DNA of 64,000 bases, from IMG/VR virus record IMGVR_UViG_3300020202_000067, positions 17,335 to 81,334 of that record, one strand, 5' to 3'. Positions 508-50,273 of this stretch are shown piece by piece. Source of the stretch: a virus (Duplodnaviria > Heunggongvirae > Uroviricota > Caudoviricetes). Position 1 is the first letter of the stretch. Every line of letters starts with the position of its first letter. The notes beneath the pieces were generated by a model. That model did not search any database. It worked only from the letters and a program-made list of their open reading frames with translations, and was not told where the DNA came from. The position numbers and the translations under genes are program-made.

Positions 508-1404
508 ATGTCTACTTCAATTGACTCCTCCTTCGTGCGGCAGTATGAGGCTGAGGTCCACCACCTCTTCCAGAGGCAGGGTGGATACCTTCGCCCCGCT
601 GTCCGCACCAAGGACAATGTGATTGGTACGTCCACGACCTTCCAGAAGATCGGCAAGGGCGTGGCCACCACCAAGGCGCGTCATGGTGTCATCACTCCGA
701 TGAACCAGGACCACACGGCTATCACCTGCACGCTCTCGGATTTCTACGCGGGCGACTGGGTGGACAAGCTGGACGAGGCCAAGGTCAACCACGATGAGCG
801 CATGGCTATCGCTCAAGGTGGTGCCTGGGCGCTGGGTCGTAAGGTCGATGACCAGATCCTCACGGCGCTGGACTCAACGACCACGACGGCTGTGACTTGG
901 GTTTACACCTCGGTCATGGGCATCGAGAACTCGCTGCTTGCCACGGTGCGTTCTCTCGATGCTGCCGACGTGCCCAACGATGGCATGCGCTTCGTTGTGC
1001 TGACTTCGCATGCCTACTCGGCGGCAATGAAGGTTGAGTCCTTCGCCAGCGCCGACTACGTTGATCCGATGAACCGTCCGATGGAGCAGGGCATGCCCAT
1101 CTTCACCTGGCGGCGTTGGATGAATGCGTTGTGGACTGTTCACACCGGCTTGTCCGGCGTGGGCACTTCGTCTGCCAAGGGCTTCGCCTGGCACAAGTCC
1201 GCTGCTGGCTATGCCACTGGTGCACATGCTGGCAACGCGGCTCAGAACCAGGCTGTGGCTGCCGACATTACGTGGCACGGCGATCGTGCTGCGCACTTCG
1301 TGAACCACTCGATGTCTGGTGGGGCTTGCCTCATCGACGACACCGGTGTGTTCGAGCTCGATCTTGATGACTCGGCTTCGTTGCCGACTGTCGTCACGGT
1401 CTAA
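508..1404 (+). CDS. major capsid protein (T7 gp10-like, HK97 fold)
   Basis: 298 aa. The FVRQYEAEV..FQ N-terminus and overall pattern match T7-type capsid proteins as I recall them. RBS AAGAGGA upstream; follows the scaffold-like ORF. Confidence 0.8.
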   Translation: MSTSIDSSFVRQYEAEVHHLFQRQGGYLRPAVRTKDNVIGTSTTFQKIGKGVATTKARHGVITPMNQDHTAITCTLSDFYAGDWVDKLDEAKVNHDERMAIAQGGAWALGRKVDDQILTALDSTTTTAVTWVYTSVMGIENSLLATVRSLDAADVPNDGMRFVVLTSHAYSAAMKVESFASADYVDPMNRPMEQGMPIFTWRRWMNALWTVHTGLSGVGTSSAKGFAWHKSAAGYATGAHAGNAAQNQAVAADITWHGDRAAHFVNHSMSGGACLIDDTGVFELDLDDSASLPTVVTV

Positions 1405-1419
1405 AGGAGGACAGACAAC

Positions 1420-2079
1420 ATGGCATTTTCTGCTTCTGCTCTCCACCTGCTCTCTGGCGGCGCTGCTGGCAAGCTGCGCTTCCACTATTCCACCTCCGAC
1501 GACTCAATGGCAACGGTTCTCGCAAACGGCTACTTCTTGTCGTCGAGCGTGAACGTTGTTGGGTTGACGGCAGGAGACCACATCTTCTGCCAGTGCTCCG
1601 ACGGCAACATGCTCGTGCGTGTTTCCGCCGCTTCTCAGACTGCGGTGGTCTGCAAGTTCGCCGGTGGCGACCTGCCGATCCGCACCTGGGCGACGGGCAC
1701 TGCGGCTGGTGACGGCAAGCTGAAGGTCGGCTTCTACGAAGTTGGAACATCGATCGCTACTGGCTCTCGAGCGGTGCTTCCCACGCCTTATCCGGGCGCG
1801 GAAGTCATCGTCTTCAAGGTCGATAGCGGCACGCAGATCTTCCACTTCGATGCTGGCGGTTCGGCTTCTGACTTCTCCATGGACGCGTCTGATGGCGCGG
1901 CTGGTGGAGGCACCGGTGTCACCTATGACAGCGTCGGCAATCGTCGCATTCAGTTGCAAGCTGAAGGCGAATGGTTCCATGTCAAGGCGACCTCGACTTC
2001 GCGCTGGCGTCTCTATGGCCACGGCCATCAGGCGACTGCCGTGAACGAAGGCGCGTCCGTCTTCTTGGGCGGCACCTAA
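1420..2079 (+). CDS. hypothetical virion protein (possible capsid decoration/minor capsid)
   Basis: 219 aa, G/S/T/A-rich, RBS AAGGAGGA just upstream. Sits between the capsid gene and a hairpin terminator. No motif recognised. Confidence 0.6.
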   Translation: MAFSASALHLLSGGAAGKLRFHYSTSDDSMATVLANGYFLSSSVNVVGLTAGDHIFCQCSDGNMLVRVSAASQTAVVCKFAGGDLPIRTWATGTAAGDGKLKVGFYEVGTSIATGSRAVLPTPYPGAEVIVFKVDSGTQIFHFDAGGSASDFSMDASDGAAGGGTGVTYDSVGNRRIQLQAEGEWFHVKATSTSRWRLYGHGHQATAVNEGASVFLGGT

Positions 2080-2090
2080 GCAAGCCAAAA

Positions 2091-2114
2091 GGGAGGAGCG
2101 CAAATGCTCCTCCC
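2091..2114 (+). terminator. stem-loop after capsid mini-operon
   Basis: GGGAGGAGC-gcaaat-GCTCCTCCC, a perfect 9-bp stem 12 nt after the stop at 2079. Followed by TACTTCTTC, a weak U-tract. Confidence 0.5.
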
Positions 2115-2137
2115 TACTTCTTCATGGGAGAGAGTTT

Positions 2138-20247: not shown

Positions 20248-20858
20248 TGCCGGCCTTCCAGCCAGTCAGCGGCGCTCCTGTTGCAGATCCGAACCTCTAT
20301 GTAAGAGGCCTGCTGGCTATAGAGACAGGCTTCTTCAATCTCAATGGCCAAGCAGTCACACTCAGAAAAGGCTCCAAGGTCCAGGCAGGAGCTGGATCTT
20401 ATGCGCTGACCGGGAATGAAATTGCTTTCACCATCTCAACTTCTCAAGCGGGCATCAATCAGGTGCTCCTCACTGGATCGACATCAAACAGGGTTTACGG
20501 GTTCACAATGACAACCAATTTCGTCATGACTGCCGGAGACACAAAGACGCTCGTGATCTCTGTCAAAGACGCTTCCGGTAACCCAGTCAATATTACAGAC
20601 GCAAGCATCAAGTGGCAGGCAGGACGGAGCTTTGGTAAGGCGTCATCCATATCAAAAGCCACTGGCGGCTCTGGAATTTCGATTACGGATGCGGCGAATG
20701 GAGTGTTCACAGTCACACTCAATCCAAGCGATACAGAAAGTCTGAAGGGAACTTTTTATCACGAAGCTCAGGTTACTGGATCTGACAGTGCAATCTCTAC
20801 TGTAATATCTGGAACGATGAAGATCAACCCAGCATTGATCGAGTCAACAGCGACCTAA
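20247..20858 (+). CDS. tail fibre/spike-like protein 1
   Basis: 203 aa. N-terminus MPAFQPVSGAPVA is shared with the next gene. One GSYALTG unit; Ig-like T/S-rich C-terminal part. Confidence 0.6.
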   Translation: MPAFQPVSGAPVADPNLYVRGLLAIETGFFNLNGQAVTLRKGSKVQAGAGSYALTGNEIAFTISTSQAGINQVLLTGSTSNRVYGFTMTTNFVMTAGDTKTLVISVKDASGNPVNITDASIKWQAGRSFGKASSISKATGGSGISITDAANGVFTVTLNPSDTESLKGTFYHEAQVTGSDSAISTVISGTMKINPALIESTAT

Positions 20859-21550
20859 TGCCTTCATTCACTCCAGTATCAGGAGCGCCAGTCGCAACAG
20901 CCGCATTTGGCGGCACTGTCAATCACTACATCATAACAATCGATGCTGGATCTTACACACTTTCAGGACAAGCTGTTGATTTAGATTTCGGCCGCAAGCT
21001 TACGCTCGGTGCAGGGTCTTACACACTCACCGGTCAAGCGATTATTTTCGACGTCAAGATGCCGGCAGAGGCTGGCAGCTACACACTCACCGGCCAAGAT
21101 GTTGATCTCGATGCTGACAGAAAGATCTATCCGGATGCCGGAGCTTACACACTCACCGGTCAAGCGATTATTTTCGACGTCAAGATGCCGGCAGAGGCTG
21201 GCAGCTACACGCTCACCGGCCAAGATGTTGATCTCGACTTCGGCCATAAGATCACGATTGGAGCTGGCAGCTACACGCTCACCGGCCAAGATGTTGATCT
21301 CGATGCTGACAGAAAGATCTATCCGGACGTTGGCAGCTATGCACTCACCGGCAAGGATGTTGCTTTTGTATTCAGCTTAGACACCGACAATGGCCTTTAC
21401 ATAGTGCTGCACGGGGAGCAAGAGAGCGAGTTGGAGTTGGAAGGTCTGTTGCAAACTTCAATCAATCTTCATGGCAGACTCGAGACAGAAGAAGATCTGG
21501 ACGCGTTGAAAGTTGGCGACAGCAACCTCACCGGTGGTCTGAAGGCTTAA
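20858..21550 (+). CDS. tail fibre/spike-like protein 2 with seven GSYTLTGQ repeats
   Basis: 230 aa. N-terminus MPSFTPVSGAPVA. Seven ~21-aa units G[SA]Y[TA]L[ST]G..[VI].[FL]D. Confidence 0.6.
   Translation: MPSFTPVSGAPVATAAFGGTVNHYIITIDAGSYTLSGQAVDLDFGRKLTLGAGSYTLTGQAIIFDVKMPAEAGSYTLTGQDVDLDADRKIYPDAGAYTLTGQAIIFDVKMPAEAGSYTLTGQDVDLDFGHKITIGAGSYTLTGQDVDLDADRKIYPDVGSYALTGKDVAFVFSLDTDNGLYIVLHGEQESELELEGLLQTSINLHGRLETEEDLDALKVGDSNLTGGLKA
20948..21373 (+). repeat. in-frame tandem coding repeats (60-66 nt units; 126-bp near-perfect duplication)
   Basis: About 21017-21112 and 21143-21238 are nearly identical (one mismatch seen). 21264-21326 repeats 21073-21135. Confidence 0.85.
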
Positions 21551-35432: not shown

Positions 35433-35605
35433 TCCTCGCCTCCCAGAACCGGGCTGAGGATGATGAACGCTGCAAGTGCGCCAGCGGCCCAGGAGTGGAC
35501 GCCGTGCCCTTCCAAGAAGGCGAAGGCAAGATAGGTAAGGTGCGCTGTCTCCTCGCCCATCTTGCGAGTTGCCTTGCCTTTAATCTTTTCAATGAACTTC
35601 TTCAT
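35429..35605 (-). CDS. small membrane protein
   Basis: MKKFIEKIKG...HSWAAGALAAFIILSPVLGG. Start chosen at 35605 by analogy with the spacing in the other conserved-block copies. Confidence 0.5.
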   Translation of the reverse strand: MKKFIEKIKGKATRKMGEETAHLTYLAFAFLEGHGVHSWAAGALAAFIILSPVLGGEE

Positions 35606-35611
35606 CTGCAT

Positions 35612-35632
35612 CTCTCCATGTTGCAGGCTTCA
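35612..35632 (-). promoter_or_regulatory. start-associated conserved block, copy 1
   Basis: Minus strand TGAAGCCTGCAACATGGAGAG, then ATGCAG-ATG. Confidence 0.8.
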
Positions 35633-35980
35633 GCACGGGTCCAGAATGACTTCGATCTCCTCGGTCAGACCTCCGTTGGGGTTGTCGGCCAAACGCGCGA
35701 AGGCGTTGGCCATCGTGTTGCCGAGCTCAGTGAGCGGCTGGCCATTGCGCTGCGCCAGCGTCACGGCCGCGTTGAACAGCGCGATCATGTAGCAGCCGGG
35801 GCAGAGCGTGCCTTCGTAGCTCTTGCCCTGCCAACGCGCACGATAGCGCATGGCTCGGTCGATGGTCGTGGCCAGTTCAGCGCCGAAGTTTCCACGTGTC
35901 TTGTCAGCGATGTGCACGAGGTCCCTGTCGCCGCCATAGACGCGGCCGTCGGTGCCATTGCGAGTGAGTTCGTTCGTCAT
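35630..35980 (-). CDS. hypothetical protein
   Basis: Start moved to MTNELTRNG, immediately after block copy 2. 116 aa. Confidence 0.6.
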   Translation of the reverse strand: MTNELTRNGTDGRVYGGDRDLVHIADKTRGNFGAELATTIDRAMRYRARWQGKSYEGTLCPGCYMIALFNAAVTLAQRNGQPLTELGNTMANAFARLADNPNGGLTEEIEVILDPC

Positions 35981-35984
35981 GTAG

Positions 35985-36005
35985 CTCTCCATGTTGCAGG
36001 CTTCA
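35985..36005 (-). promoter_or_regulatory. start-associated conserved block, copy 2
   Basis: TGAAGCCTGCAACATGGAGAG, then CTAC-ATG. Confidence 0.8.
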
Positions 36006-36200
36006 TAAACCAAACCACATCGGCTTGATTGCATCAACAACAGCCAACCAGAATTCCTTCTGATCAGCAAGGTCTGCGCCGCCATAGGCGTCGTAGTAGT
36101 TGGCATTGGACAACGCTTTCTTGTGCGCCTCTTCAGCGCCAAGAGCATTGATTAGCTGCTGCGCTCGCGCATCAGCCTCCTGGTAATCAGCAAGTTTCAT
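36003..36200 (-). CDS. hypothetical protein
   Basis: Start moved to MKLADYQ (ATGA coupling; GGAGG in AAGCCGGAGGCTGC upstream). 65 aa. Confidence 0.55.
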   Translation of the reverse strand: MKLADYQEADARAQQLINALGAEEAHKKALSNANYYDAYGGADLADQKEFWLAVVDAIKPMWFGL

Positions 36201-36622
36201 GCAGCCTCCGGCTTGAAAGGGTTGTAGCCCATCGCTTTTTCTTCTTCGAACGAAGGTGCCCATGACTCCACCTTGCTGCGTCCATAGTACAGCTTGCGCA
36301 GCAGGTCGTCGCGCGTTTCCACCGGCTCAACTGCGAGCGCGGCGAGCACTTCCTTATAGCGCTCCGCACCCCACAGCTTCTTCGCGATGTCATGGTCGAA
36401 GATGAGGCTGTCAGCAGAGGGGATCTCCTCGACGATGGTGTAATCGAAGCCGTCGCGCTTCTCGGTCACAACGTAGACCAAGTGATGCGCCACGATCACG
36501 TCGGTGACACCGAAGGCTTCGCGGATGATGTCCTTGAAAAGGTCTGCATGTTCAGCGTTGCGATCATTTTCCCAGGGTCCGGCGAGGCGCATGCCCTGCG
36601 GCGTGAAGTCATCCTTCATCAT
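36197..36622 (-). CDS. hypothetical protein
   Basis: 141 aa track ORF. Its start follows block copy 3. Confidence 0.65.
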   Translation of the reverse strand: MMKDDFTPQGMRLAGPWENDRNAEHADLFKDIIREAFGVTDVIVAHHLVYVVTEKRDGFDYTIVEEIPSADSLIFDHDIAKKLWGAERYKEVLAALAVEPVETRDDLLRKLYYGRSKVESWAPSFEEEKAMGYNPFKPEAA

Positions 36623-36627
36623 TTCAT

Positions 36628-36648
36628 CGCTCCATGTTGCAGGCTTTA
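36628..36648 (-). promoter_or_regulatory. start-associated conserved block, copy 3
   Basis: TAAAGCCTGCAACATGGAGCG, then ATGAA-ATG. Confidence 0.75.
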
Positions 36649-37275
36649 AATGTATTCCATCTGCTTGGGGCTCAGCGGGCGCGCGTACTTAGGCGCAGGG
36701 TCCTTGAGCCACTCGATGAGTTGCTTGCGCAGTGACTTCTTGAAGTCGCTACGCAGGTTGGTGGTGAGCAGCTTGCGGTAGCGCGCCCACTCGTAGTATG
36801 AGCGACGGCGCAGACGCAGAAGAGGCACATAGCTCTTGAGGCCGATCTTAGAGGCGATCTCCTTGATGTCCTTACGCGCCATGCGGAGCTCAGCCGCCTT
36901 CTGAGCGCGCTGCTGAGCACGATGCCTGGCTCTCTGTTCCTTCTGCCAAGCTTCGTATTTCGCCAGCGTCTCAGCGTCAGCATCAACCGACGTAGCGAAC
37001 AATGGGTAGGTCCACCCGCGCGTCGTGGCAAACATGACCGTGAACGGCTCGCCCTTTTCATCGTCCCAAATGAGACAAAAGAAGTCGCTGTCCCAAGCGC
37101 CGTTGTGCTCCCACTCCTTGAGCACGCGACCTTCGTATTTCTTCTTGGTCCAGTAGAGCCGCGTGACGGGCCACTCTTCACCCTTGAAGGGTCCGTCATA
37201 TTGCTTCTCGGTTCCTTGCGAGTGGCCCATGGTCGCACCCGGCTCCCATGGCTCTGCGAAGACGATGAGTGCCAT
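36646..37275 (-). CDS. hypothetical protein
   Basis: Start moved to MALIVFAEPW (GGAGCG RBS). 209 aa with a basic helical C-terminal half. Confidence 0.6.
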   Translation of the reverse strand: MALIVFAEPWEPGATMGHSQGTEKQYDGPFKGEEWPVTRLYWTKKKYEGRVLKEWEHNGAWDSDFFCLIWDDEKGEPFTVMFATTRGWTYPLFATSVDADAETLAKYEAWQKEQRARHRAQQRAQKAAELRMARKDIKEIASKIGLKSYVPLLRLRRRSYYEWARYRKLLTTNLRSDFKKSLRKQLIEWLKDPAPKYARPLSPKQMEYI

Positions 37276-37277
37276 GA

Positions 37278-37613
37278 TCAATCGCTCCACTTCTCGATGT
37301 AAGCGTTCGTCTCCTTGAGCACATCCTCAAGGTTGGTGGTATAGTCGGCGAGGCAGTCCTCGACGTTGCCCCAGATGAACTGCACCCAGCCTTGATAGCC
37401 GCGCTTATCAACATTGACCGGTATCTTGGTGACGTAGAACCGATCCTCGTCGGTCGTGAACATTACATTAAGAATGGCTTCTACATCCTTGCTGCAAATC
37501 AGCACATCCTCATCGCCTTCATTCACGGTGATGAAGTAGCCAGCAGCAATCAATTCTTCCGCTGCCTTGCGCGCGATGTTGCGCTCAAGCTCTTGATCCC
37601 ATTTGCGGCTCAT
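37278..37613 (-). CDS. hypothetical protein
   Basis: 111 aa track ORF with a GGAGG RBS. Confidence 0.65.
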   Translation of the reverse strand: MSRKWDQELERNIARKAAEELIAAGYFITVNEGDEDVLICSKDVEAILNVMFTTDEDRFYVTKIPVNVDKRGYQGWVQFIWGNVEDCLADYTTNLEDVLKETNAYIEKWSD

Positions 37614-37614
37614 G

Positions 37615-37695
37615 TCAGAACCTCCAGAAGAACGGCGCTGCGAACAGCGCGACCATTGCGAGCAGTCCTGCGGTTGCGATGAGTTGCTTGATCAC
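37615..37695 (-). CDS. tiny hydrophobic peptide (26 aa, not in track)
   Basis: GTGA-coupled GTG. MIKQLIATAGLLAMVALFAAPFFWRF. Its codons supply the GGAGG RBS of the next gene. Speculative. Confidence 0.3.
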   Translation of the reverse strand: MIKQLIATAGLLAMVALFAAPFFWRF

Positions 37696-37874
37696 TCAGC
37701 CCACCCCTGCAGCTCGCCGGTGTTCTTGGAGCGGACGGCGACGGCCAACCCACCCTGCGGCGCATCTTCGATCTTCCAGGTCTGATAGGGCATGGTGCTC
37801 TCACGAGCAAAGGTGCGCGCCCACTTGAGCGCGGCTTCGAAGTCGTTGAAGGTCTTGACAGGCATCTTGTTCAT
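37692..37874 (-). CDS. hypothetical protein
   Basis: 60 aa track ORF. Its start follows block copy 4. Confidence 0.6.
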   Translation of the reverse strand: MNKMPVKTFNDFEAALKWARTFARESTMPYQTWKIEDAPQGGLAVAVRSKNTGELQGWAE

Positions 37875-37879
37875 TTCAG

Positions 37880-37900
37880 CTCTCCATGTTGCAGGCTTCA
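37880..37900 (-). promoter_or_regulatory. start-associated conserved block, copy 4
   Basis: TGAAGCCTGCAACATGGAGAG, then CTGAA-ATG. Confidence 0.85.
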
Positions 37901-38248
37901 GAAACCGTTGGTGATGCGCTCCAGCGCCTCAGCCCATGCCGCCGTGCGGTCGGCGCTCATCGCATTCGACACCGGCGAAGTCGAGCGCTCCGGCCACCGC
38001 GCGCCGCGCAGCACCAGCCGCTTGATTTCGGACAACGCAGCTTCCGGCTTGTACTCCGGCAGCTCCGTCCATGCCTTGAGGGTCAGCGCAACCTCGAACC
38101 GTGCCGCAGCCTCCATGGCATTCTGCGCCCACTCGAAGGCGTAGGCGGGATTGGACTTGAAGTTTTCCTCGAACTTGCTGAGCGCGCCGCGCACCGCTGA
38201 GTTGGAAAATTCTTCGATGAGGCTGTCGATCTTATCTTGCAGTTCCAT
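37898..38248 (-). CDS. hypothetical protein
   Basis: Start moved to MELQDKIDSL after block copy 5. 116 aa, helical. Confidence 0.6.
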   Translation of the reverse strand: MELQDKIDSLIEEFSNSAVRGALSKFEENFKSNPAYAFEWAQNAMEAAARFEVALTLKAWTELPEYKPEAALSEIKRLVLRGARWPERSTSPVSNAMSADRTAAWAEALERITNGF

Positions 38249-38252
38249 TTCT

Positions 38253-38273
38253 CTCTCCATGTTGCAGGCTTCA
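38253..38273 (-). promoter_or_regulatory. start-associated conserved block, copy 5
   Basis: TGAAGCCTGCAACATGGAGAG, then AGAA-ATG. Here the leading TGA is not the upstream stop, which lies at 38293-38295. Confidence 0.85.
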
Positions 38274-38292
38274 GGCGTCCAGGGCAGTTCAG

Positions 38293-38574
38293 TCATCCAA
38301 GGTTGAATGGCTTGCGTCCTCCCCTTGTGGCATTGTCGATCTTGTCCATGACCGCGTAGAGAGCAGCCTGCTCTTTCTTCAGCGCCTTGCCGCGTGCACT
38401 CTTGAGCACGCTGTTGACCAGCCGTCGGCTATAGCGCTGGGTCTTGCTCTTGTTGATCGCGGCTTCAATGAGCTCGTCGATCTCCTTATCGATCACGTCA
38501 CAACGTGTTTCGGCGAGGCGGTAGATGCCCCACGTGGTGTTGATCGCTGCCTTCTCTTCCTTCGTTAGTTTCAT
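38293..38574 (-). CDS. hypothetical protein
   Basis: 93 aa track ORF. Its start follows block copy 6. Confidence 0.65.
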   Translation of the reverse strand: MKLTKEEKAAINTTWGIYRLAETRCDVIDKEIDELIEAAINKSKTQRYSRRLVNSVLKSARGKALKKEQAALYAVMDKIDNATRGGRKPFNLG

Positions 38575-38579
38575 TTCAG

Positions 38580-38600
38580 CTCTCCATGTTGCAGGCTTGA
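38580..38600 (-). promoter_or_regulatory. start-associated conserved block, copy 6
   Basis: TCAAGCCTGCAACATGGAGAG, then CTGAA-ATG. Confidence 0.85.
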
Positions 38601-38602
38601 AT

Positions 38603-38806
38603 TCACTTCATCGCTTCTTCAAAGAAGTTCGCCCACATGTCCGGCTGCCTCTCCGCCTTGGCCGCAGCCTCTCGGACCTTCGCGCCGGAGAAGGGCGGAT
38701 ACTTCTTGGAGCGCGGCTTCTTGTACGTGTCGGTCGCCTCGTCGTAGCGGTAGTTGCCGAATTGGCGCAGCATGCGCTCGAACTCTTGCAGCATCGTCGG
38801 TTTCAT
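38603..38806 (-). CDS. hypothetical protein
   Basis: 67 aa track ORF. Its start follows degenerate block copy 7. Confidence 0.6.
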   Translation of the reverse strand: MKPTMLQEFERMLRQFGNYRYDEATDTYKKPRSKKYPPFSGAKVREAAAKAERQPDMWANFFEEAMK

Positions 38807-38811
38807 TTCAG

Positions 38812-38832
38812 CTCTCCATGTTCAAGCAGGCC
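38812..38832 (-). promoter_or_regulatory. start-associated conserved block, copy 7 (degenerate 5' half)
   Basis: GGCCTGCTTGAACATGGAGAG, then CTGAA-ATG. Confidence 0.6.
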
Positions 38833-39049
38833 ATTCTTCGATCAAGGCGACGAATTCGTCCCCATCCATCATCGCGAGCTTTTCGAGTTGATTGTTGCTG
38901 AACTTGCCGCTGTCTTCGAGTTGATCGAAGACTTCCTGACCCAGCTCCAACCACGACTTGTTGAGCAACTTGCCGGGCTCGGACGGATCGATCTTCTTGA
39001 CTTCAGTGCTCACACCTTGGTAACGGAAAACATATGTCTTCGTCTTCAT
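38822..39049 (-). CDS. hypothetical protein (first gene after the 400-bp non-coding gap)
   Basis: 75 aa track ORF. Its start follows half-copy 8. Confidence 0.6.
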   Translation of the reverse strand: MKTKTYVFRYQGVSTEVKKIDPSEPGKLLNKSWLELGQEVFDQLEDSGKFSNNQLEKLAMMDGDEFVALIEEWPA

Positions 39050-39054
39050 TTCAG

Positions 39055-39063
39055 CTCTCCATG
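39055..39063 (-). promoter_or_regulatory. start-associated block, half-copy 8 (3' half only)
   Basis: CATGGAGAG then CTGAA-ATG. The 5' half is replaced by a long hairpin. Confidence 0.55.
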
Positions 39064-39120
39064 AGACAACAGGAAAGCGGCGGCAGGGTTGCGCCCCGTC
39101 GCCGCTTGATCTCTTGTCTC
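39063..39120 (-). other. extended stem-loop directly upstream of the first RBS of the small-gene array
   Basis: GAGACAA / TTGTCTC outer stem and AAGCGGCG / CGCCGCTT inner stem (8 bp perfect). On the minus strand it is followed by UUUCCUGUUGUCUC. Confidence 0.6.
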
Positions 39121-45184: not shown

Positions 45185-45879
45185 GGCCCACCATACGGAA
45201 TGTCGCACCCGGCGAGATATTTGTGGCGCTCCTTGGAGGAGAGAAGGAATGCGATGAACTCAGCGATGATAGCTGGTGGAGTTTCCTCGCCTGCAGGCAA
45301 AGCAGCAAGTTGATATTCTCTAGCTTGCTGTTCCGTCCACCCTCTGAGCTGCACCACGCGCCGGTCGATCTCTGCACTCATGTGCGTGCCTGACATCTTG
45401 TTGGGAGAGACGCTGAACACGGTGATGTTGTGCGTCTTCTTCAACTCACGCGCCAACTGCTTTGTCAGAATGGCGGCCGCGCCCTTGGAAGCGTTGTAAG
45501 CCGCTGAAGATGTCATTGGCACATGGCTGGCATTGGAAACGATGTTCACCACCGTCCCATCACGCAGCTCTTCAAGAAGCGCCTTGGTGCAAAGGAAGAT
45601 GCCCTTGGCATTGGTGTCCATCACATCATCCCACTCCTGCTCTGGAACGTTTGGCAGGAAGTTGATGCGATTGATGCCTGCACAATTGATTAGAACATCG
45701 ATCTTGTCCAGCCCCCGCTTCAAAAGATCGAGCCGAGCCTGCCCAATAGAAAAGCTGCTCGACACATCAATGTGGTGCTTCAGCGACCAGTCAATCACTC
45801 TCCAGCCATTCTTCAAGAGATGGTTGGAGATCGCTTCACCCAAGCCACTGCTCGCGCCTGTGATAACTGCTGTCTTCAA
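45181..45879 (-). CDS. short-chain dehydrogenase/reductase (classical SDR)
   Basis: TGASSGLG, NCAG and S...YNASK motifs. 232 aa. Confidence 0.85.
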   Translation of the reverse strand: MKTAVITGASSGLGEAISNHLLKNGWRVIDWSLKHHIDVSSSFSIGQARLDLLKRGLDKIDVLINCAGINRINFLPNVPEQEWDDVMDTNAKGIFLCTKALLEELRDGTVVNIVSNASHVPMTSSAAYNASKGAAAILTKQLARELKKTHNITVFSVSPNKMSGTHMSAEIDRRVVQLRGWTEQQAREYQLAALPAGEETPPAIIAEFIAFLLSSKERHKYLAGCDIPYGGP

Positions 45880-46319
45880 TTCTGCCTCCCATGCACCAAG
45901 AGCGCTGTGATACCAGCCTCTCTGAACGCTGCAACGACATCTTCTCTGTCGTCAATGATCAAGGCAACTTCATCTTTGAACCGCTCGCCGAAGCGTTCGG
46001 CGGCCAGCTTAAGCTTTATTTCCGCTGCCGGATGATAAGCCTCGTCCGGCCGCATAAGCAGCTCATCGAACATGGCGCCATGCTTGACGAGCAGCTCCAT
46101 AGTAAGCTTGCGCCACTTCTCCGGTCGTGCCGTAATGCCAACGATGTACATGCCGCCAGCGCGCATTGCATTAATCATGTTGACAACGTCATGGATCGGC
46201 TCGTCATCCTTGGAAGCGGCATGATAAGCGTCCCATCCTCCAGGGCCACCGATCATGTCGTCACGCCAGAAAGCATTCGACACTGTATGATCAATGTCAC
46301 ACAAAACGATCTTCCTCAT
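45876..46319 (-). CDS. HAD-superfamily phosphatase (PNK-phosphatase/5'-nucleotidase-like)
   Basis: CDIDHTV (DxDxT), GITAR (motif II), IIDDRED (motif IV). Confidence 0.65.
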   Translation of the reverse strand: MRKIVLCDIDHTVSNAFWRDDMIGGPGGWDAYHAASKDDEPIHDVVNMINAMRAGGMYIVGITARPEKWRKLTMELLVKHGAMFDELLMRPDEAYHPAAEIKLKLAAERFGERFKDEVALIIDDREDVVAAFREAGITALLVHGRQN

Positions 46320-46776: not shown

Positions 46777-46966
46777 CTTCAGCTCCATAGATCTTCATTC
46801 GGACTTTGTGTTCAGTTCTCATAGTGCGGTTCATCTCTTCTGTCATTTCATTTTGCTTCTCCAATGCGTCAGCGATGCGTTTGAGGGAAATTGCTACAGA
46901 TCTGTCATAAAAAGCCTTCCCCGAGCTGAAACTGCCAGCCTCAAATAATTCAACATCTCTGTTCAT
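46745..46966 (-). CDS. hypothetical protein
   Basis: 73 aa track ORF. The ATG shares one base with the upstream stop. Confidence 0.5.
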   Translation of the reverse strand: MNRDVELFEAGSFSSGKAFYDRSVAISLKRIADALEKQNEMTEEMNRTMRTEHKVRMKIYGAEDGNQEEPRQV

Positions 46967-47382
46967 CAGAACTGTTTACCTCCTTCTTTCAGACGGTTCT
47001 CAGGCTTGTGATCTTCACGCTTTTCATTGTACCAGACCTTCTCGAGCACAGCGCCAGAGAGATCAAGTCTGAACGCTCCTCCATAGTCAAAAGCGCGAAT
47101 GAATAGATCTCCCAGCTCGACCTCCTCGCTCTTACGGTGCGGCAAGTGATCATCCATCTTGTCCTTACGCACACCTTCGAGCATCTCAGATAGTTCAGAA
47201 TGCTTGAGCGCAATCATCTCACCTTTGTTTCTTTCGATCCGCTCTCCCGTTCTTGGGTCCTGCCACCACCTTGCGTTTTTGTGGTGCAGGATCGCGGCCA
47301 GCCAGTTGAGGCTTTGCGCGTGTTGAACGAGCAGTCTGTTGATCGTCTCTTCGCTGAACCGGCTCAAGTCTGGTAAGCTCAT
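46966..47382 (-). CDS. MazG-like nucleotide pyrophosphohydrolase
   Basis: Start at MSLPDL. ALKHSELSEMLEGVRK ... EEVELGDLFIRAFD ... EKVWYNEKREDH fits the all-alpha NTP-PPase E..E/E..D pattern. Confidence 0.6.
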   Translation of the reverse strand: MSLPDLSRFSEETINRLLVQHAQSLNWLAAILHHKNARWWQDPRTGERIERNKGEMIALKHSELSEMLEGVRKDKMDDHLPHRKSEEVELGDLFIRAFDYGGAFRLDLSGAVLEKVWYNEKREDHKPENRLKEGGKQF

Positions 47383-47545
47383 CTTCCATCTCCACTCCGA
47401 CAATGTAAAGTTCATTACGCAGCTCGGTGAGTGACATCCTGCTTAGCCGTCCTGAAGTTACGGCCAAGGTCGAGGTGACTTTGGAAAGACGTTGATGCCA
47501 CCTCACCCAAGCGATGATTTTCTCAGTAATGGTCTCACCCCGCAT
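47219..47545 (-). CDS. hypothetical ORF (only the 5' ~130 nt are unique; the rest overlaps the MazG-like gene)
   Basis: The only ORF covering 47416-47534. Its C-terminal two thirds are low-complexity and out of frame with the MazG-like gene. Confidence 0.3.
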   Translation of the reverse strand: MRGETITEKIIAWVRWHQRLSKVTSTLAVTSGRLSRMSLTELRNELYIVGVEMEDELTRLEPVQRRDDQQTARSTRAKPQLAGRDPAPQKRKVVAGPKNGRADRKKQR

Positions 47546-47741
47546 GCTTGACCATCACTTCGATATTCAATACTCTGAGTTGCTTAAGCACACTTTCAGC
47601 GCCTTCCCGATAGCCCTGAAGTCTTGCTTGCGCCTCCGCTTCATCTCTTGTGCGTTTGAGCTCATGAAGTTCTTTCAACAACTCCTCAACTTTCTTTTGA
47701 TCGCCACATATTTCTTGGGCGAACAGTTTATAGTCTGTCAT
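47535..47741 (-). CDS. hypothetical coiled-coil protein
   Basis: 68 aa track ORF. Confidence 0.55.
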   Translation of the reverse strand: MTDYKLFAQEICGDQKKVEELLKELHELKRTRDEAEAQARLQGYREGAESVLKQLRVLNIEVMVKHAG

Positions 47742-47863
47742 GACAACGCCCTCATCTGATCGATCAACTTGATCATGTGCGTCTTCTGTTCAGCAGAGAT
47801 TGTGTTGTCAATTCCTGGAAACTGAGAAACAGGAATTGATCTGACGACTTCTCCACGCATCAT
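47738..47863 (-). CDS. small protein (41 aa, not in track) ending in the same 12 aa as ThyX
   Basis: MMRGEVVRSIPVSQFPGIDNTISAEQKTHMIKLIDQMRALS. ATGA overlaps at both ends. Confidence 0.5.
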   Translation of the reverse strand: MMRGEVVRSIPVSQFPGIDNTISAEQKTHMIKLIDQMRALS

Positions 47864-48825
47864 TGCGCCGGAACCGCGACTGGTGTTGAACTTGGCAGAA
47901 CCATAACATTAACCTTGCCTGTCTCTACAGCCTTCATGAGAGCATCGGCTCGCTCCTTCTCAGCCAGAGCCAACAGCACATCACGAATTTGCGCTGGCGT
48001 GAAGTTGTCAGGCAATTGCTCAAACAAGCGCTTGACACCAATGCCTTCATTCGAGCGTCTTGCCGCTTGCTCCTCAGCTATCTGCGTCAGCAATTTTTGG
48101 CGCTTGCGGTCCTCTTCAGAAGCCATGCGTTCAGCAATAGCGTTAAGCACCTTGGCGTCTGGCAGCACTTCGCGCAGAAGCACCGGCATGAAGGTGATTG
48201 CGCCCTTGGCCTCTGTATCCGTGAAGCCAAGCTTGATGAGATCATTGTTCACGGCGCGAACGACTTCCTCCATCATGCGCTGTTCAACGTCCGCGCGCCG
48301 CTCAACGCTAGCGTCTGCCCATGGAAATGAGGCGATTGCGTCTCTGACCGCGGCCCTTGCGGCGGGAACAATAAGATTGCGTTCAAGTGCATCCTCGTCG
48401 CCAATGCGCTGCAGGATCTTCCATGCGACTGAAGGGTTGATGGAGTAGGGGAAGGAAGCTTCCACCTGCACCGGGTTATGATCCTTAGACATCGACACAA
48501 TGGTCGGGCCGTCTGCGTCTTTGGCCTTGGCTGAGAAGTCAACGGACCGGCGCTGGATGGAGATCTTGGTGACGTCGTACATCGGGTTCATGAAGCGCAA
48601 CCCTTCAGGATAGGCTGTCTCCTGCACCGCGCCGAACCATTGGCCAACGCCAACATGGCCTGTGGAGACAGGGCTGATGGACATGATCAATGACCAAATG
48701 GCAGTGACCACCACACCTGCAACAAACCACAAACCAGCCAGACCTCCGCGACCGTCCAGCAACGAGAAAAGAGTCGCAATCAGAACGATAAAAGCGATGA
48801 TGCCTACACCAACAAGAAACAACAT
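47860..48825 (-). CDS. SPFH/band-7 (prohibitin/stomatin-like) membrane protein
   Basis: 321 aa. Two N-terminal TM helices, an SPFH-like core, then an A/E/R-rich coiled coil. Confidence 0.7.
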   Translation of the reverse strand: MLFLVGVGIIAFIVLIATLFSLLDGRGGLAGLWFVAGVVVTAIWSLIMSISPVSTGHVGVGQWFGAVQETAYPEGLRFMNPMYDVTKISIQRRSVDFSAKAKDADGPTIVSMSKDHNPVQVEASFPYSINPSVAWKILQRIGDEDALERNLIVPAARAAVRDAIASFPWADASVERRADVEQRMMEEVVRAVNNDLIKLGFTDTEAKGAITFMPVLLREVLPDAKVLNAIAERMASEEDRKRQKLLTQIAEEQAARRSNEGIGVKRLFEQLPDNFTPAQIRDVLLALAEKERADALMKAVETGKVNVMVLPSSTPVAVPAQ

Positions 48826-48835
48826 GTCTTCCTCC

Positions 48836-49594
48836 TCAGGAAAGAGCTCTCATCTGGTCGATCAGCTTGATCATGAACCTCTTCTCCTCGATTGAGATCG
48901 GGAGTTGTCTGATGTGATTGTCAAGATCATTCGCTGCCTTATCGAACGTTCGCTCGATAAACAAGTCGATCCAAGGGTGCACGGCGCGCACCGCAGTCTT
49001 CATGTCCTCAAGCACGTCACGGTATTCGCCCTGGGTGCGGGATGAGGAGCGCTTGCGCACCACATCAACAAACGTGCGCATGTTCATCTTGGCGACGATG
49101 TTGGTCAAGATGTTGGTGGGCAAGATGCCGCGTGCGTCTTCGATCGCAGCGCCATTCTTAATTAGCTCCTTGTAAACTGTATCAGTGAACGACATGCCTT
49201 GATCATAGATATGTTGTAGTCCTTCACTCTCAACGATGCTCGGCCCTGTCAGGTAGTCCCACCCCGGACCCTCGCTCACGTCCAAAACGCGCATGGTCTG
49301 TTGAGCAAAGCTGGCGGTGCGCGTGCGCACAAACTGGTGCGTGAAGGCGCGCGTCACATCCTCAATGACGAAGGTGTAGTCAACAAACTCCCAACTCGAT
49401 GGGATCGTATTGGCCATGTATTCGAGCTCCTTCCAGAGCTCAGCGATCGGCATGTCGAGGTATTTGCGCAAGCCTTCCGGGTTCATGGTGAGGCGCGTGT
49501 TCTTGGTGAACACAAGCAGTGCCGCCGCATAGTGGCTGGCATCCAGCCGCCCAGACCCGGTGTAGTCAAGCAGTGAGACCTTCAGCTTCTTCAT
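48836..49594 (-). CDS. thyX: flavin-dependent thymidylate synthase-like protein (divergent signature)
   Basis: Start at MKKLKVSLLDYTG. Signature RTRTASFAQQTMR versus the canonical RHRxxSxxxxSxR. About 30-aa C-terminal extension. Confidence 0.7.
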   Translation of the reverse strand: MKKLKVSLLDYTGSGRLDASHYAAALLVFTKNTRLTMNPEGLRKYLDMPIAELWKELEYMANTIPSSWEFVDYTFVIEDVTRAFTHQFVRTRTASFAQQTMRVLDVSEGPGWDYLTGPSIVESEGLQHIYDQGMSFTDTVYKELIKNGAAIEDARGILPTNILTNIVAKMNMRTFVDVVRKRSSSRTQGEYRDVLEDMKTAVRAVHPWIDLFIERTFDKAANDLDNHIRQLPISIEEKRFMIKLIDQMRALS

Positions 49595-50273
49595 CGCTCT
49601 CTCCATAAACTCTCTCAAGCACCTGCCGGACCTTCATGAGATCCATCTTGTCGTCCACTGTCCGCACGCCGCTTTCCATGTCGATGTAGTACGGGCCGCG
49701 CGCATTCATCTTGACCAGTTCAGCAACAACTTTGTCAGGGTTGAGGCCGCCTGAATAACCGTTGATGCCTTGCTTGTTTTCAAGATAGCGAGGCCAATGC
49801 TCTGGTCGGAGACCTCTTCCGCCTGAAGGATCATACAACCAATCTACCCGAGGATCAGTCGGCATCGCCGGTAATTGATGCTGCAACACCACGCGCACGC
49901 CATACTTCTTGCTGAACTCTACAGCATGGTCTTTCCAAAAGACATCTCCTGAAACAGGACGATAGTTGACCTGCACCCTCTGGAAACGCGACCATGGTAT
50001 GCTTGGACTGACAGGGTCAAGATCGCCGGTGTCGATGATCTTCTTCGCAAAGTAACCACAGATGTGCGCGGAGAGCGGCAACATCGATCTGGCCAGCTCC
50101 TTCACGTATGCGTAATCTGGGTAGCGAGGATGATTGCCGCTCTTGGTCGGCGAGAAGAGCACACCCCATTCAATGCGGCCGAGGTTCTCACGCGTGATCA
50201 CTTCAGCGTCGTTGATGTAGATGCTCTCATCGATGCCGGTGAAGGTGATGTGGTTAGGGAGCAACATTGCCAA
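49566..50273 (-). CDS. TrpF (phosphoribosylanthranilate isomerase)-like TIM-barrel protein
   Basis: Collinear with TrpF blocks: ITFTGID, EWGVLF, VQVNY, LYDPSGGRG, YSGGLNPDKV, IDMESGV. The TrpF catalytic Cys position is Thr. Confidence 0.5.
   Translation of the reverse strand: MAMLLPNHITFTGIDESIYINDAEVITRENLGRIEWGVLFSPTKSGNHPRYPDYAYVKELARSMLPLSAHICGYFAKKIIDTGDLDPVSPSIPWSRFQRVQVNYRPVSGDVFWKDHAVEFSKKYGVRVVLQHQLPAMPTDPRVDWLYDPSGGRGLRPEHWPRYLENKQGINGYSGGLNPDKVVAELVKMNARGPYYIDMESGVRTVDDKMDLMKVRQVLERVYGESDEEAEGLTA

Follow-up and report, generated by a model that had tools for sequence, protein, structure and literature searches.

An SPFH gene between two copies of the thyX 3′ end in a phage genome: a probable product of recombination

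Organization of the Locus

The window (the whole 64-kb stretch of phage DNA that was analysed) carries a series of minus-strand genes comprising thyX, a gene for an SPFH/Band-7 membrane protein, a small open reading frame (ORF41), and a gene for a 68-aa protein (gp68). All genes under discussion lie on this strand, and their coordinates are given in Table 1. The thyX ORF as delimited mechanically spans 48836-49618, from a TTG at 49618, and public gene callers place the start at 49594. ORF41 was described as unannotated in the initial annotation but had already been called by public gene callers (P0001). Its ATG (47861-47863) overlaps the SPFH stop codon and its own stop codon overlaps the gp68 ATG, in both cases as ATGA, and gp68 is predicted to be translationally coupled to ORF41. 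A scan for promoters and terminators revealed no element dividing thyX, SPFH, ORF41, and gp68.

Table 1. Features of the thyX-SPFH-ORF41-gp68 region (positions within the window).
Feature	Position	Strand	Remarks
thyX, flavin-dependent thymidylate synthase-like (predicted)	48836..49594	-	252 aa; public call P0024
Resident ThyX C-terminal extension, last 29 codons, LDNHIRQLPISIEEKRFMIKLIDQMRALS	48839..48925	-	
Last 12 codons of resident thyX	48839-48874	-	
10-nt spacer GGAGGAAGAC between thyX and SPFH	48826..48835	-	Read off sequence
SPFH/Band-7 membrane protein gene, full-length, inserted cargo	47860..48825	-	321 aa; Pfam Band_7; PHROG 200
ORF41, between SPFH and the 68-aa gene	47738-47863	-	41 aa
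ORF41 5′ part, non-ThyX, 17 codons, MMRGEVVRSIPVSQFPG	47813..47863	-	
thyX 3′-end relic, last 24 codons of ORF41, IDNTISAEQKTHMIKLIDQMRALS	47741..47812	-	Alignment to resident tail
12-aa identical tail within ORF41	47741-47776	-	
Native-type translation initiation region for gp68 (putative)	47738..47753	-	Read off sequence
68-aa gene (gp68)	47535..47741	-	ORF list and public gene call

The SPFH product matches Pfam Band_7 (PF01145; E 7e-18; 65.8 bits, cut-off 23.6). Its hydrophobic N-terminus (membrane segment) aligns with 21 homologues, and its N- and C-termini match the ends of homologues P0003 and P0017. The closest homologues are 67-70% identical and occur in bacterial-looking gene contexts. 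None of the related loci fetched (77 distinct thyX 3′ ends) carried an SPFH gene. A genome scan for a donor returned only a single match of 24% identity. The composition of the gene (GC 0.55) is not anomalous. The cargo is a single gene, and no integrase, transposase, homing endonuclease, or terminal inverted repeats were found with it. The SPFH gene ends in TGA, which creates the overlapping ATG, and two homologues use TAA, a possible sign of selection on the start of ORF41.

No PHROG or Pfam family match was obtained for ORF41, and its first 17 codons have no similarity to thyX or to the flanks of SPFH. Only the query itself was recovered by a word-indexed search of 5.8 billion clustered proteins, which also missed the resident ThyX and has poor sensitivity for 41 aa, and by an exhaustive phmmer search of 1.84 billion representative proteins. 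With regard to gp68, no family match or relatives were detected, and no empty site with thyX joined to gp68 turned up. A 10-bp hairpin at 47808-47839, inside the ORF41 region, was considered as an RNA signal and rejected, as stems this large turn up roughly every 800 nt in the window, no more rarely than by chance. In addition, Rfam gave no match at E<=1, and the predicted RNA fold did not differ significantly from that of shuffled sequence (z-score -0.37).

The ThyX Clade and Its C-Terminal Extension

The resident ThyX matches Pfam Thy1 (PF02511; E 2.4e-32; 112.7 bits, cut-off 24.8), belongs to PHROG 85, and is matched by Foldseek to the PDB structures of ThyX from M. tuberculosis and T. maritima (E ~1e-9). 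Its best match in the 5.8-billion-protein search is 67% identical. The canonical nucleotide-binding motif of ThyX is RHRxxSxxxxSxR. In the clade of the resident protein, this motif takes the form RTRTASFAQQTMR, with Thr for His and Thr for the second Ser. Conserved positions across 55 sequences are R90, S95 (nearly invariant), Q98, Q99, and R102.

The Pfam model stops at residue 216 of 260. The tail had been placed outside the normal ThyX fold, which is correct insofar as it lies beyond the Pfam model and the PDB alignments; within the clade, however, it is an integral, confidently predicted helix pair, with AF2 helices at residues 217-230 and 235-251 (high pLDDT). The tail motif is C-terminal in every clade ThyX (25 viral loci, about 120 proteins, and 77 distinct thyX 3′ ends), and per-position counts across 118 homologues show K-L-x-D-Q-M-R to be invariant or nearly so. 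Within the clade-specific extension, conservation is highest in the C-terminal helix, and the tail is this conserved helix of a large phage ThyX clade, not a special add-on.

The thyX 3′ End as a Translation Start Region

At 58 of the 77 thyX 3′ ends, the stop codon overlaps the next ATG, and thyX there abuts the next gene directly. The Arg codon of the tail is AGG in 40/74 ends (54%) compared with 9% elsewhere in those genes. In the window, the ORF41 copy has both the AGG codon and the TCATGA overlap: GAGGG (47749-47753; codons ATG-AGG-GCG) is followed, after an 8-nt spacer, by the gp68 ATG (47739-47741), which overlaps the ORF41 stop codon (47738-47740). The resident thyX copy, on the other hand, has AGA as the Arg codon and TCC as the last codon (TCC-TGA), with no overlapping ATG, and is followed by a separate Shine-Dalgarno sequence for SPFH, GGAGG, at 48831-48835 inside the spacer. 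It appears that the native thyX-type junction with the 68-aa gene was kept by the ORF41 copy and not by the resident thyX. Because the thyX 3′ end doubles as a Shine-Dalgarno sequence and overlapping start, the relic would preserve the native translation start of gp68. An RNA signal had been dismissed in the initial annotation; a signal at the level of RNA or translation is nevertheless present, with the Shine-Dalgarno sequence and the overlapping start for the following gene both lying in the tail codons. The annotation of the clade, which comprises abundant environmental phage ThyX proteins, may gain from recognizing a conserved two-helix C-terminal extension whose last codons serve as the Shine-Dalgarno sequence and start of the following gene.

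Comparison of the Two Tail Copies

ThyX and ORF41 share the C-terminal end MIKLIDQMRALS (...LPISIEEKRFMIKLIDQMRALS in ThyX and ...NTISAEQKTHMIKLIDQMRALS in ORF41, each up to the stop codon). The reported identity of the 12-aa tails was reproduced, together with its codon pattern: 6 of the last 12 codons differ, at 7 nt (CTT/TTG accounts for two), and all 6 differences are synonymous at the codon level. For six random differences, the chance of an all-synonymous outcome is ~5e-5. Synonymous divergence between the copies is saturated (Nei-Gojobori pS = 0.88). Homology between thyX and ORF41 is certain for 20 codons; with a 5-codon gap that pairs IDNT with LDNH, it extends to 24. A direct repeat of the thyX 3′ end (12/12 aa; 20-24 homologous codons) is found on both sides of SPFH.

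Upstream of the tail, the linker (IDNTISAEQKTH... in ORF41) contains many non-synonymous differences (pN 0.33 in the first 12 codons), with 6/12 residues differing and a 5-codon indel between the window copies. When linker and tail are aligned together, 51/72 nt are identical, and the longest identical run between the repeats is 10 nt. In the 64-kb window, every peptide-level repeat other than this one is also repeated, in tandem or dispersed, at the DNA level. Scored against the tail profile of the ThyX family, the relic reaches the 99th percentile and is thus undecayed, and the tail of ThyX P0060 is identical to AEQKTHMIKLID of the relic. Both window tails end in ALS, which is uncommon: among the 120 listed homologues, one other ALS tail was present (P0124), and AQS was far commoner. 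The shared ending may mean either that the parental genes were closely akin or that the identity was selected.

The synonymous pattern was originally taken as evidence of selection on the peptide. Purifying selection does act on the family-wide ThyX C-terminus, but this is no proof of selection on ORF41, as orthologous thyX genes behave alike. Orthologous ThyX pairs with 62-82% core identity often share identical last 12 aa with a linker identity of 0-4/12, and identical 9-aa tail cores of orthologous genes from different phages differ at up to 8/27 nt, synonymously. Since such pairs show the same pattern, the synonymous-only differences need no selection on ORF41, and this comparison shows them to be in all appearance the ordinary divergence of two thyX lineages. 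For reasoning from sequence only, a caution follows: identical peptides in the same genome with synonymous-only differences can stem from two diverged parental genes, and such identity need not mean selection on a new small ORF.

Relatives and a Second Case

No close relative of the window phage was found by blastn against phage GenBank, by protein-guided scans of IMG/VR, by DNA-pattern scans, by a scan of JGI metagenomes, or by the 5.8-billion-protein search; consequently there is neither a true empty site nor a donor allele, and we infer the two-parent history described below. Second tails were detected at 2 of the 77 distinct thyX 3′ ends, namely those of the window and of locus L040. The gene order in L040 is thyX, a SAM-methyltransferase gene, a 31-codon in-frame thyX-tail relic, and a HAD gene, and the stop/start overlap is duplicated. 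The two L040 copies are identical at 36/37 nt across the tail and start codon, and DNA identity switches sharply from ~97% to ~50% at the tail start. The L040 relic is undecayed (71st percentile of the family tail profile), and its mini-ORF shares with ORF41 just the ThyX-derived part. A search for relatives of the L040 thyX found none. L040 is an independent second case of a thyX-tail relic. In a further locus (L166), thyX is followed by an L040-type methyltransferase gene (74% identity) and a HAD gene with no relic between them; as this locus has the L040-type cargo without the relic, the relic is dispensable. A relic boundary common to the window and L040 would have pointed to a targeted mechanism, but this idea was dropped, the boundary in the window being uncertain (20-24 codons) as against 31 codons in L040.

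Origin of ORF41

The absence of SPFH from the 77 thyX ends, 58 of which abut the next gene, and the bacterial-looking contexts of the closest SPFH homologues support the earlier proposal that SPFH was inserted and has a copy of the thyX 3′ end on either side. ORF41 is probably a recombination scar, that is, the displaced thyX 3′ end left when SPFH was joined to the locus, and such a scar is most likely an ordinary signature of phage genome mosaicism, not a new docking peptide. One parent would have carried SPFH behind thyX; in a related parent, the 68-aa gene would have come directly after thyX. The two would have been joined slightly out of register or, equivalently, SPFH would have been captured with duplication of the thyX end. 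The recombinant would then contain one complete thyX, SPFH, and a 20-24 codon end piece of the second thyX, still fused to its native downstream gene. ORF41 would probably be translated as a short bridge passing ribosomes from SPFH to gp68, with its peptide as a by-product, and the relic was possibly retained as such a translational-coupling bridge. The locus would thus provide a clean, dated-looking example of a phage gaining a host-like gene (SPFH) with its operon unbroken, in which the joint leaves thyX complete on one side and, on the other, retains the thyX-embedded ribosome-binding site of the downstream gene.

What speaks against a scar is that ORF41 is in frame, coupled at both ends, and free of non-synonymous change in 12 codons, and a selected micro-protein would look alike. 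In that case, ORF41 would encode a free ThyX C-terminal helix docking on ThyX itself or on a partner shared with it, for instance as a competitor or complement of the helix in the tetramer. The intact reading frame, the lack of non-synonymous change despite synonymous saturation, the high rank of the relic in the family profile, the in-frame undecayed tail copy also retained in L040 (71st percentile), and the AF2 prediction of the tail as a discrete helical hairpin are all in line with such a function. However, we consider it unlikely: ORF41 has no homologue among 5.8 billion or 1.84 billion proteins, which also leaves the docking or competition peptide of the initial annotation unsupported; a second tail occurs at just 2/77 distinct thyX 3′ ends; L166 has the cargo of L040 without the relic; the N-terminal 17 codons offer no conservation to assess; and a recent origin from a functional thyX explains all the sequence features equally well. 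A broader form of this idea starts from the two unrelated phages, the window phage and that of L040, each of which has independently kept an undecayed in-frame ThyX helix mini-ORF between a new gene and the old downstream gene. That both mini-ORFs are selected, either as obligatory relay ORFs passing ribosomes to the thyX-embedded start or as free helices modulating the ThyX tetramer, seems rather improbable; if true, what began as a recombination scar would now serve as a regulatory micro-gene.

The simplest event would involve one genome, which copied its own thyX 3′ end when SPFH was captured, the copies then diverging in situ. The uncommon ALS ending common to both copies agrees with such an in-place tandem duplication, as do the L040 copies, whose 36/37 identical nt would be expected soon after it. 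Nevertheless, it is decidedly unlikely, for an unselected copy could not last to a pS of 0.88 undecayed, the linker differs at 6/12 residues and by a 5-codon indel, and the switch from ~97% to ~50% identity in L040 points to recombination or conversion and not to uniform divergence. Saturated synonymous sites in a relic at the 99th percentile argue instead for two diverged parents joined recently, as in the recombination scar favoured here, over an old unselected in-place duplicate. Direct repeats of a gene 3′ end around inserted DNA are also typical of integrative elements, and two different cargos are found at one junction (window and L040), which might suggest an SPFH cassette of the integrase or transposase type that targets and duplicates the thyX 3′ end in an att-like manner. 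This is highly improbable given that the cargo is a single gene lacking any recombinase-type gene or terminal inverted repeats, that the longest identical run is 10 nt, and that the repeats measure 60-90 nt with boundaries differing between the window and L040, unlike target-site duplications.

Comparison with Known Systems

In mycobacteriophage Island3, the C-terminal 18 aa of the inserted gp68 repeat the end of the upstream gp67 (Pope et al. 2011, PMC3029335). The repeat was ascribed by the authors to recombination over about 50 bp, and the inserted gene has no homologues and is absent in the sister phage Brujita (PMC3029335). As in ORF41, the C-terminus of the upstream gene is duplicated in an ORF without homologues. 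The Island3 repeat, however, lies inside the inserted gene and is similar at the DNA level, whereas that of the window occupies an ORF of its own, 41 codons long, that follows a functional cargo gene. In addition, Island3 has an insert-free sister, while the window copies differ at saturated synonymous sites and have no known insert-free sister genome.

In the Hendrix-type model of phage mosaicism (summarised in PMC3029335), morons are inserted and illegitimate, off-register recombination takes place at gene boundaries. SPFH resembles a moron in being one additional gene that has a Shine-Dalgarno sequence of its own and lies at a junction where, at the family level, thyX mostly abuts the next gene directly, with joints at or near gene boundaries that would preserve the functions of the flanking genes. 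Most described mosaic joints are clean, whereas the window keeps a 20-24 codon remnant with the overlapping start of the downstream gene. Integrative elements use att sites in the 3′ ends of tRNA or protein genes and duplicate the 3′ end. The window is similar in that the element-proximal copy completes the target gene and the displaced native 3′ end forms a diverged relic on the far side, but differs in having no integrase, no identical core sequence, and a single-gene cargo. With regard to the tail itself, Thermus thermophilus Thy1 (PDB 6J61) has an extra C-terminal domain and thus, like the phage clade, structure beyond the ThyX core; the phage-clade extension differs in that it is a short hairpin of two helices bearing a conserved motif of its own, and in that its last codons encode the ribosome-binding site of the next gene.

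Organization of the thyX-gp68 Region

All genes of the region, namely the resident thyX, the SPFH/Band-7 gene, a 41-codon open reading frame (ORF41), and the gene for a 68-residue protein (gp68), are encoded on the minus strand. No Rfam match, significant RNA fold, or promoter or terminator between the genes was found in this stretch. The coordinates of these and other features are listed below.

Features of the window and of two related thyX loci
Feature	Position	Strand	Remarks
thyX	48836-49594 (public call; mechanical ORF reaches 49618)	-	C-terminal end ...LDNHIRQLPISIEEKRFMIKLIDQMRALS, then stop
ThyX motif region	49300-49340		residues ~85-102 of the 252-aa protein
thyX-SPFH spacer	10 nt	-	GGAGGAAGAC; strong Shine-Dalgarno sequence
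SPFH/Band-7 gene	47860-48825	-	stop overlaps ORF41 ATG
ORF41	47738-47863	-	41 codons, ending ...IDNTISAEQKTHMIKLIDQMRALS, then stop; stop overlaps gp68 ATG
Hairpin in ORF41	47808-47839	-	perfect 10-bp CAAUUCCUGG-type stem, 12-nt loop
Shine-Dalgarno region of gp68	47749-47753		
gp68 gene	47535-47741	-	68 aa; ATG inside TCATGA of ORF41
MazG-like pyrophosphatase	46966-47415	-	PHROG 5658, E 7e-51
HAD/PNKP-type phosphatase	45876-46319	-	downstream module
29-nt repeat, eight copies	35602, 35975, 36618, 37870, 38243, 38570, 38802, 39045		TTCATTTCAGCTCTCCATGTTGCAGGCTT; range 35602-39073
Tandem peptide repeats	20260-21360	+	AGSYTLTGQ..., units ~63 and 126 nt
L040 (Ga0233427_10020240)	1400-2120		thyX, SAM-methyltransferase, relic, HAD phosphatase
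L046	2930-3045		linker echo

The initial annotation had reported an identical 12-residue C-terminus on ThyX and ORF41 with synonymous differences only, and the codon comparison bears this out. Six of the last 12 codons (7 nt) differ, all synonymously; pS between the two tails is 0.88, i.e., saturated, and the probability that six random differences would all be synonymous is ~5e-5. Homology extends 8-12 codons further upstream, where many amino-acid changes and a 5-codon gap are present. This is the only peptide repeat in the window that is not a repeat at the DNA level. The hairpin belongs to the part of ORF41 without ThyX homology, immediately 5′ of the thyX-derived portion (the relic). As the window has roughly one stem of this size per 800 nt, the hairpin is not clearly meaningful.

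The Tail as a Conserved Extension of a Phage ThyX Clade

The Pfam Thy1 model covers ThyX up to residue 216 of 260, and alignments with PDB ThyX sequences break off near residue 208; the last ~40 residues of ThyX therefore constitute an extension. The alignments of all 25 IMG/VR relatives of ThyX reach its C-terminus. Most of these relatives have the same C-terminal motif, as do ~120 from the protein collection. Across 118 aligned tails, K and D never vary; L occurs in 113, Q in 103, and R in 117, and the residues preceding the motif favour E-[KQ]-[RK]-T-x-M-I. AlphaFold2 (55-sequence alignment) predicted two high-confidence helices at residues 217-230 and 235-251. Rather than being peculiar to this genome, the tail is a helical hairpin conserved at the C-terminus in a large ThyX clade of environmental phages, and purifying selection on it is therefore expected. 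The earlier view that the tail lies outside the normal ThyX fold is correct insofar as it extends past the Pfam and PDB alignments, but has to be qualified, as the helices are clade-wide and confidently predicted.

In the motif region, the clade has RTRTASFAQQTMR at the position of the canonical ThyX motif RHRxxSxxxxSxR, with His and the second Ser both replaced by Thr. The clade matches PDB ThyX sequences only at E ~1e-4 and may represent a divergent ThyX-like enzyme.

The thyX 3′ End as a Translation Start

Related loci between L001 and L164 provided 77 distinct thyX 3′ ends. In 58 of them (75%), the thyX stop overlaps the ATG of the following gene, as nCATGA in 43 and as TAATG/TGATG in 15. 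AGG encodes the conserved tail Arg in 40 of 74 ends (54%), compared with 9% of the other Arg residues of these genes, and in 63 of the 74 this codon precedes the stop by 2-3 codons. With this codon preference and position, ATG-AGG supplies a GAGG Shine-Dalgarno sequence suitably spaced from the overlapping start; together with the stop/ATG overlaps, it follows that the last ThyX codons double as the ribosome-binding site of the next gene. ORF41 retains the native arrangement (...ATG AGG GCG TTG TCA TGA, with the gp68 ATG within TCATGA), whereas the resident thyX has AGA and TCC TGA, and SPFH has its own GGAGG. Because only the ORF41 copy keeps both AGG and TCATGA, it looks like the original type of junction between thyX and its downstream gene, and the thyX/SPFH junction is of a different kind.

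Inserted Cargo Genes and a Second Duplication

No SPFH gene was present at any related thyX locus examined. The SPFH protein is full length, with termini coinciding with those of its homologues, and its closest relatives (67-70% identity) have bacterial surroundings, with PilZ, HicAB, YkuD, and MoaA-type genes next to them. The gene does not stand out in GC content. SPFH is an insertion, and the proposal that it was inserted and is flanked by a duplicated thyX 3′ end is upheld by the related loci without SPFH and by the tails on either side. The module downstream of thyX contains the MazG-like pyrophosphatase and HAD/PNKP-type phosphatase genes. A homologue of the latter directly abuts thyX in many relatives; several small genes are interposed in this phage.

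Beyond the window, a second tail was detected only in L040, a 4.1-kb metagenome contig, among the fetched loci with 77 distinct thyX ends. Its thyX ends with ...SDLEDQIQRYVPALARPHMIKLLDQIRSR, and a TAATG overlap opens a 163-aa SAM-methyltransferase gene (Pfam). Directly past the methyltransferase stop, an in-frame relic of 31 codons (ending ...IDLEESILSTDMDPATKTSMIKLLDQMRSR) opens, again by TAATG, a gene for a HAD phosphatase, which directly follows thyX in many relatives. The last 37 nt of the two copies, including AGGAG and ATG, are identical at 36 positions, whereas the upstream linker is unrelated in DNA. As in the window, the relic is more canonical than the resident tail (71st versus 13th family-profile percentile). 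L040 is an independent second thyX-tail duplication. L166 and L018 are one contig, from another phage; there, thyX, the methyltransferase found in L040 (74% identity), and HAD are joined by clean overlapping junctions and no relic is present. Taken together, these cases indicate that different cargos entered the junction between thyX and the next gene, and that a relic is sometimes left but not required.

In the locus L046, the gene 3′ of thyX starts with MNNPKEKTTYM, which echoes the thyX linker LGKEKTTAM with 18/24 nt in common (E 0.007 by tblastn confined to this locus). The resemblance may be a weak remnant of a further off-register joint, or it may have arisen by chance in A-rich DNA.

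Origin of ORF41

The synonymous-only differences had been taken as selection on the ORF41 peptide; they do not demonstrate it, as orthologous thyX ends of different phages show the same pattern. Among 120 ThyX homologues, the last 12 residues match exactly in 34 pairs, some of which have core identity of just 62-69% and 0-4 of 12 linker residues in common. In DNA, up to 8 of 27 nt differ between thyX ends that come from separate phages but encode the same 9-aa core. The window pair, with 12/12 tail and 6/12 linker residues shared, an indel, and saturated synonymous sites, looks like a pair of thyX orthologues from phages of moderate divergence. The ORF41 tail (AEQKTHMIKLID) is identical to that of the ThyX homologue P0060, well within ThyX variation, and scores at the 99th percentile of real ThyX tails in the family profile, compared with the 25th for the resident ThyX. 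An unselected copy could not remain so canonical over the time needed to saturate synonymous sites; thus, either two parental thyX genes were recently joined or ORF41 itself is selected. No ORF41 homologues were found in protein searches, whose sensitivity is limited for so short a query, and it is unlikely that ORF41 is a functional micro-protein. The suggestion of a docking peptide is not supported; the insertion and the duplication are. Integrase- or transposon-type insertion is not supported either, with no recombinase and a longest identical run of 10 nt between the repeats. No close relative of this phage was found in any collection searched.

The gene layout, the conservation of the tail across the family, the double use of the thyX end, the L040 case, and the absence of ORF41 homologues are shown by the data; from them we infer a two-parent history with a coupling role for ORF41. 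In the proposed scenario, two related phage genomes with collinear gene order would have recombined once, off register, with parent A cut just past its cargo gene and parent B 20-31 codons before its thyX end, yielding thyX(A), cargo, relic(B), and downstream(B). Such a product would be viable: thyX(A) is intact, and the ribosome-binding site embedded in thyX stays with the downstream gene. ORF41 would have acquired its ATG on the SPFH stop, which is TGA; two SPFH homologues use TAA. Ribosomes probably translate ORF41 as a bridge within a coupled chain from SPFH through ORF41 to gp68. The region offered no other explanation, given the lack of Rfam, fold, promoter, and terminator signals noted above.

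In mycobacteriophage Island3, an inserted ORF without homologues repeats, at its own C-terminus, the C-terminal 18 residues of the upstream gene, which was attributed to recombination over ~50 bp (Pope et al. 2011, PMC3029335). The window shows the same signature and the same kind of joint; unlike in Island3, however, the repeat forms a mini-ORF of its own, synonymous sites are saturated between the copies, and the relic keeps the translation start of the downstream gene.

Other Repeats in the Window

The eight copies of the 29-nt repeat share 72-100% identity with the reference copy. In minus-strand orientation, the repeat reads AAGCCTGCAAC-ATGGAGAG-CTGAA-ATG, a conserved intergenic block that closes with a Shine-Dalgarno sequence and the ATG of successive small genes on that strand. 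It resembles a recurring gene-boundary or regulatory cassette, of a type for which a role in promoting modular shuffling has been proposed. The ORF with the tandem AGSYTLTGQ repeats probably encodes a repeat-containing structural or fibre protein.
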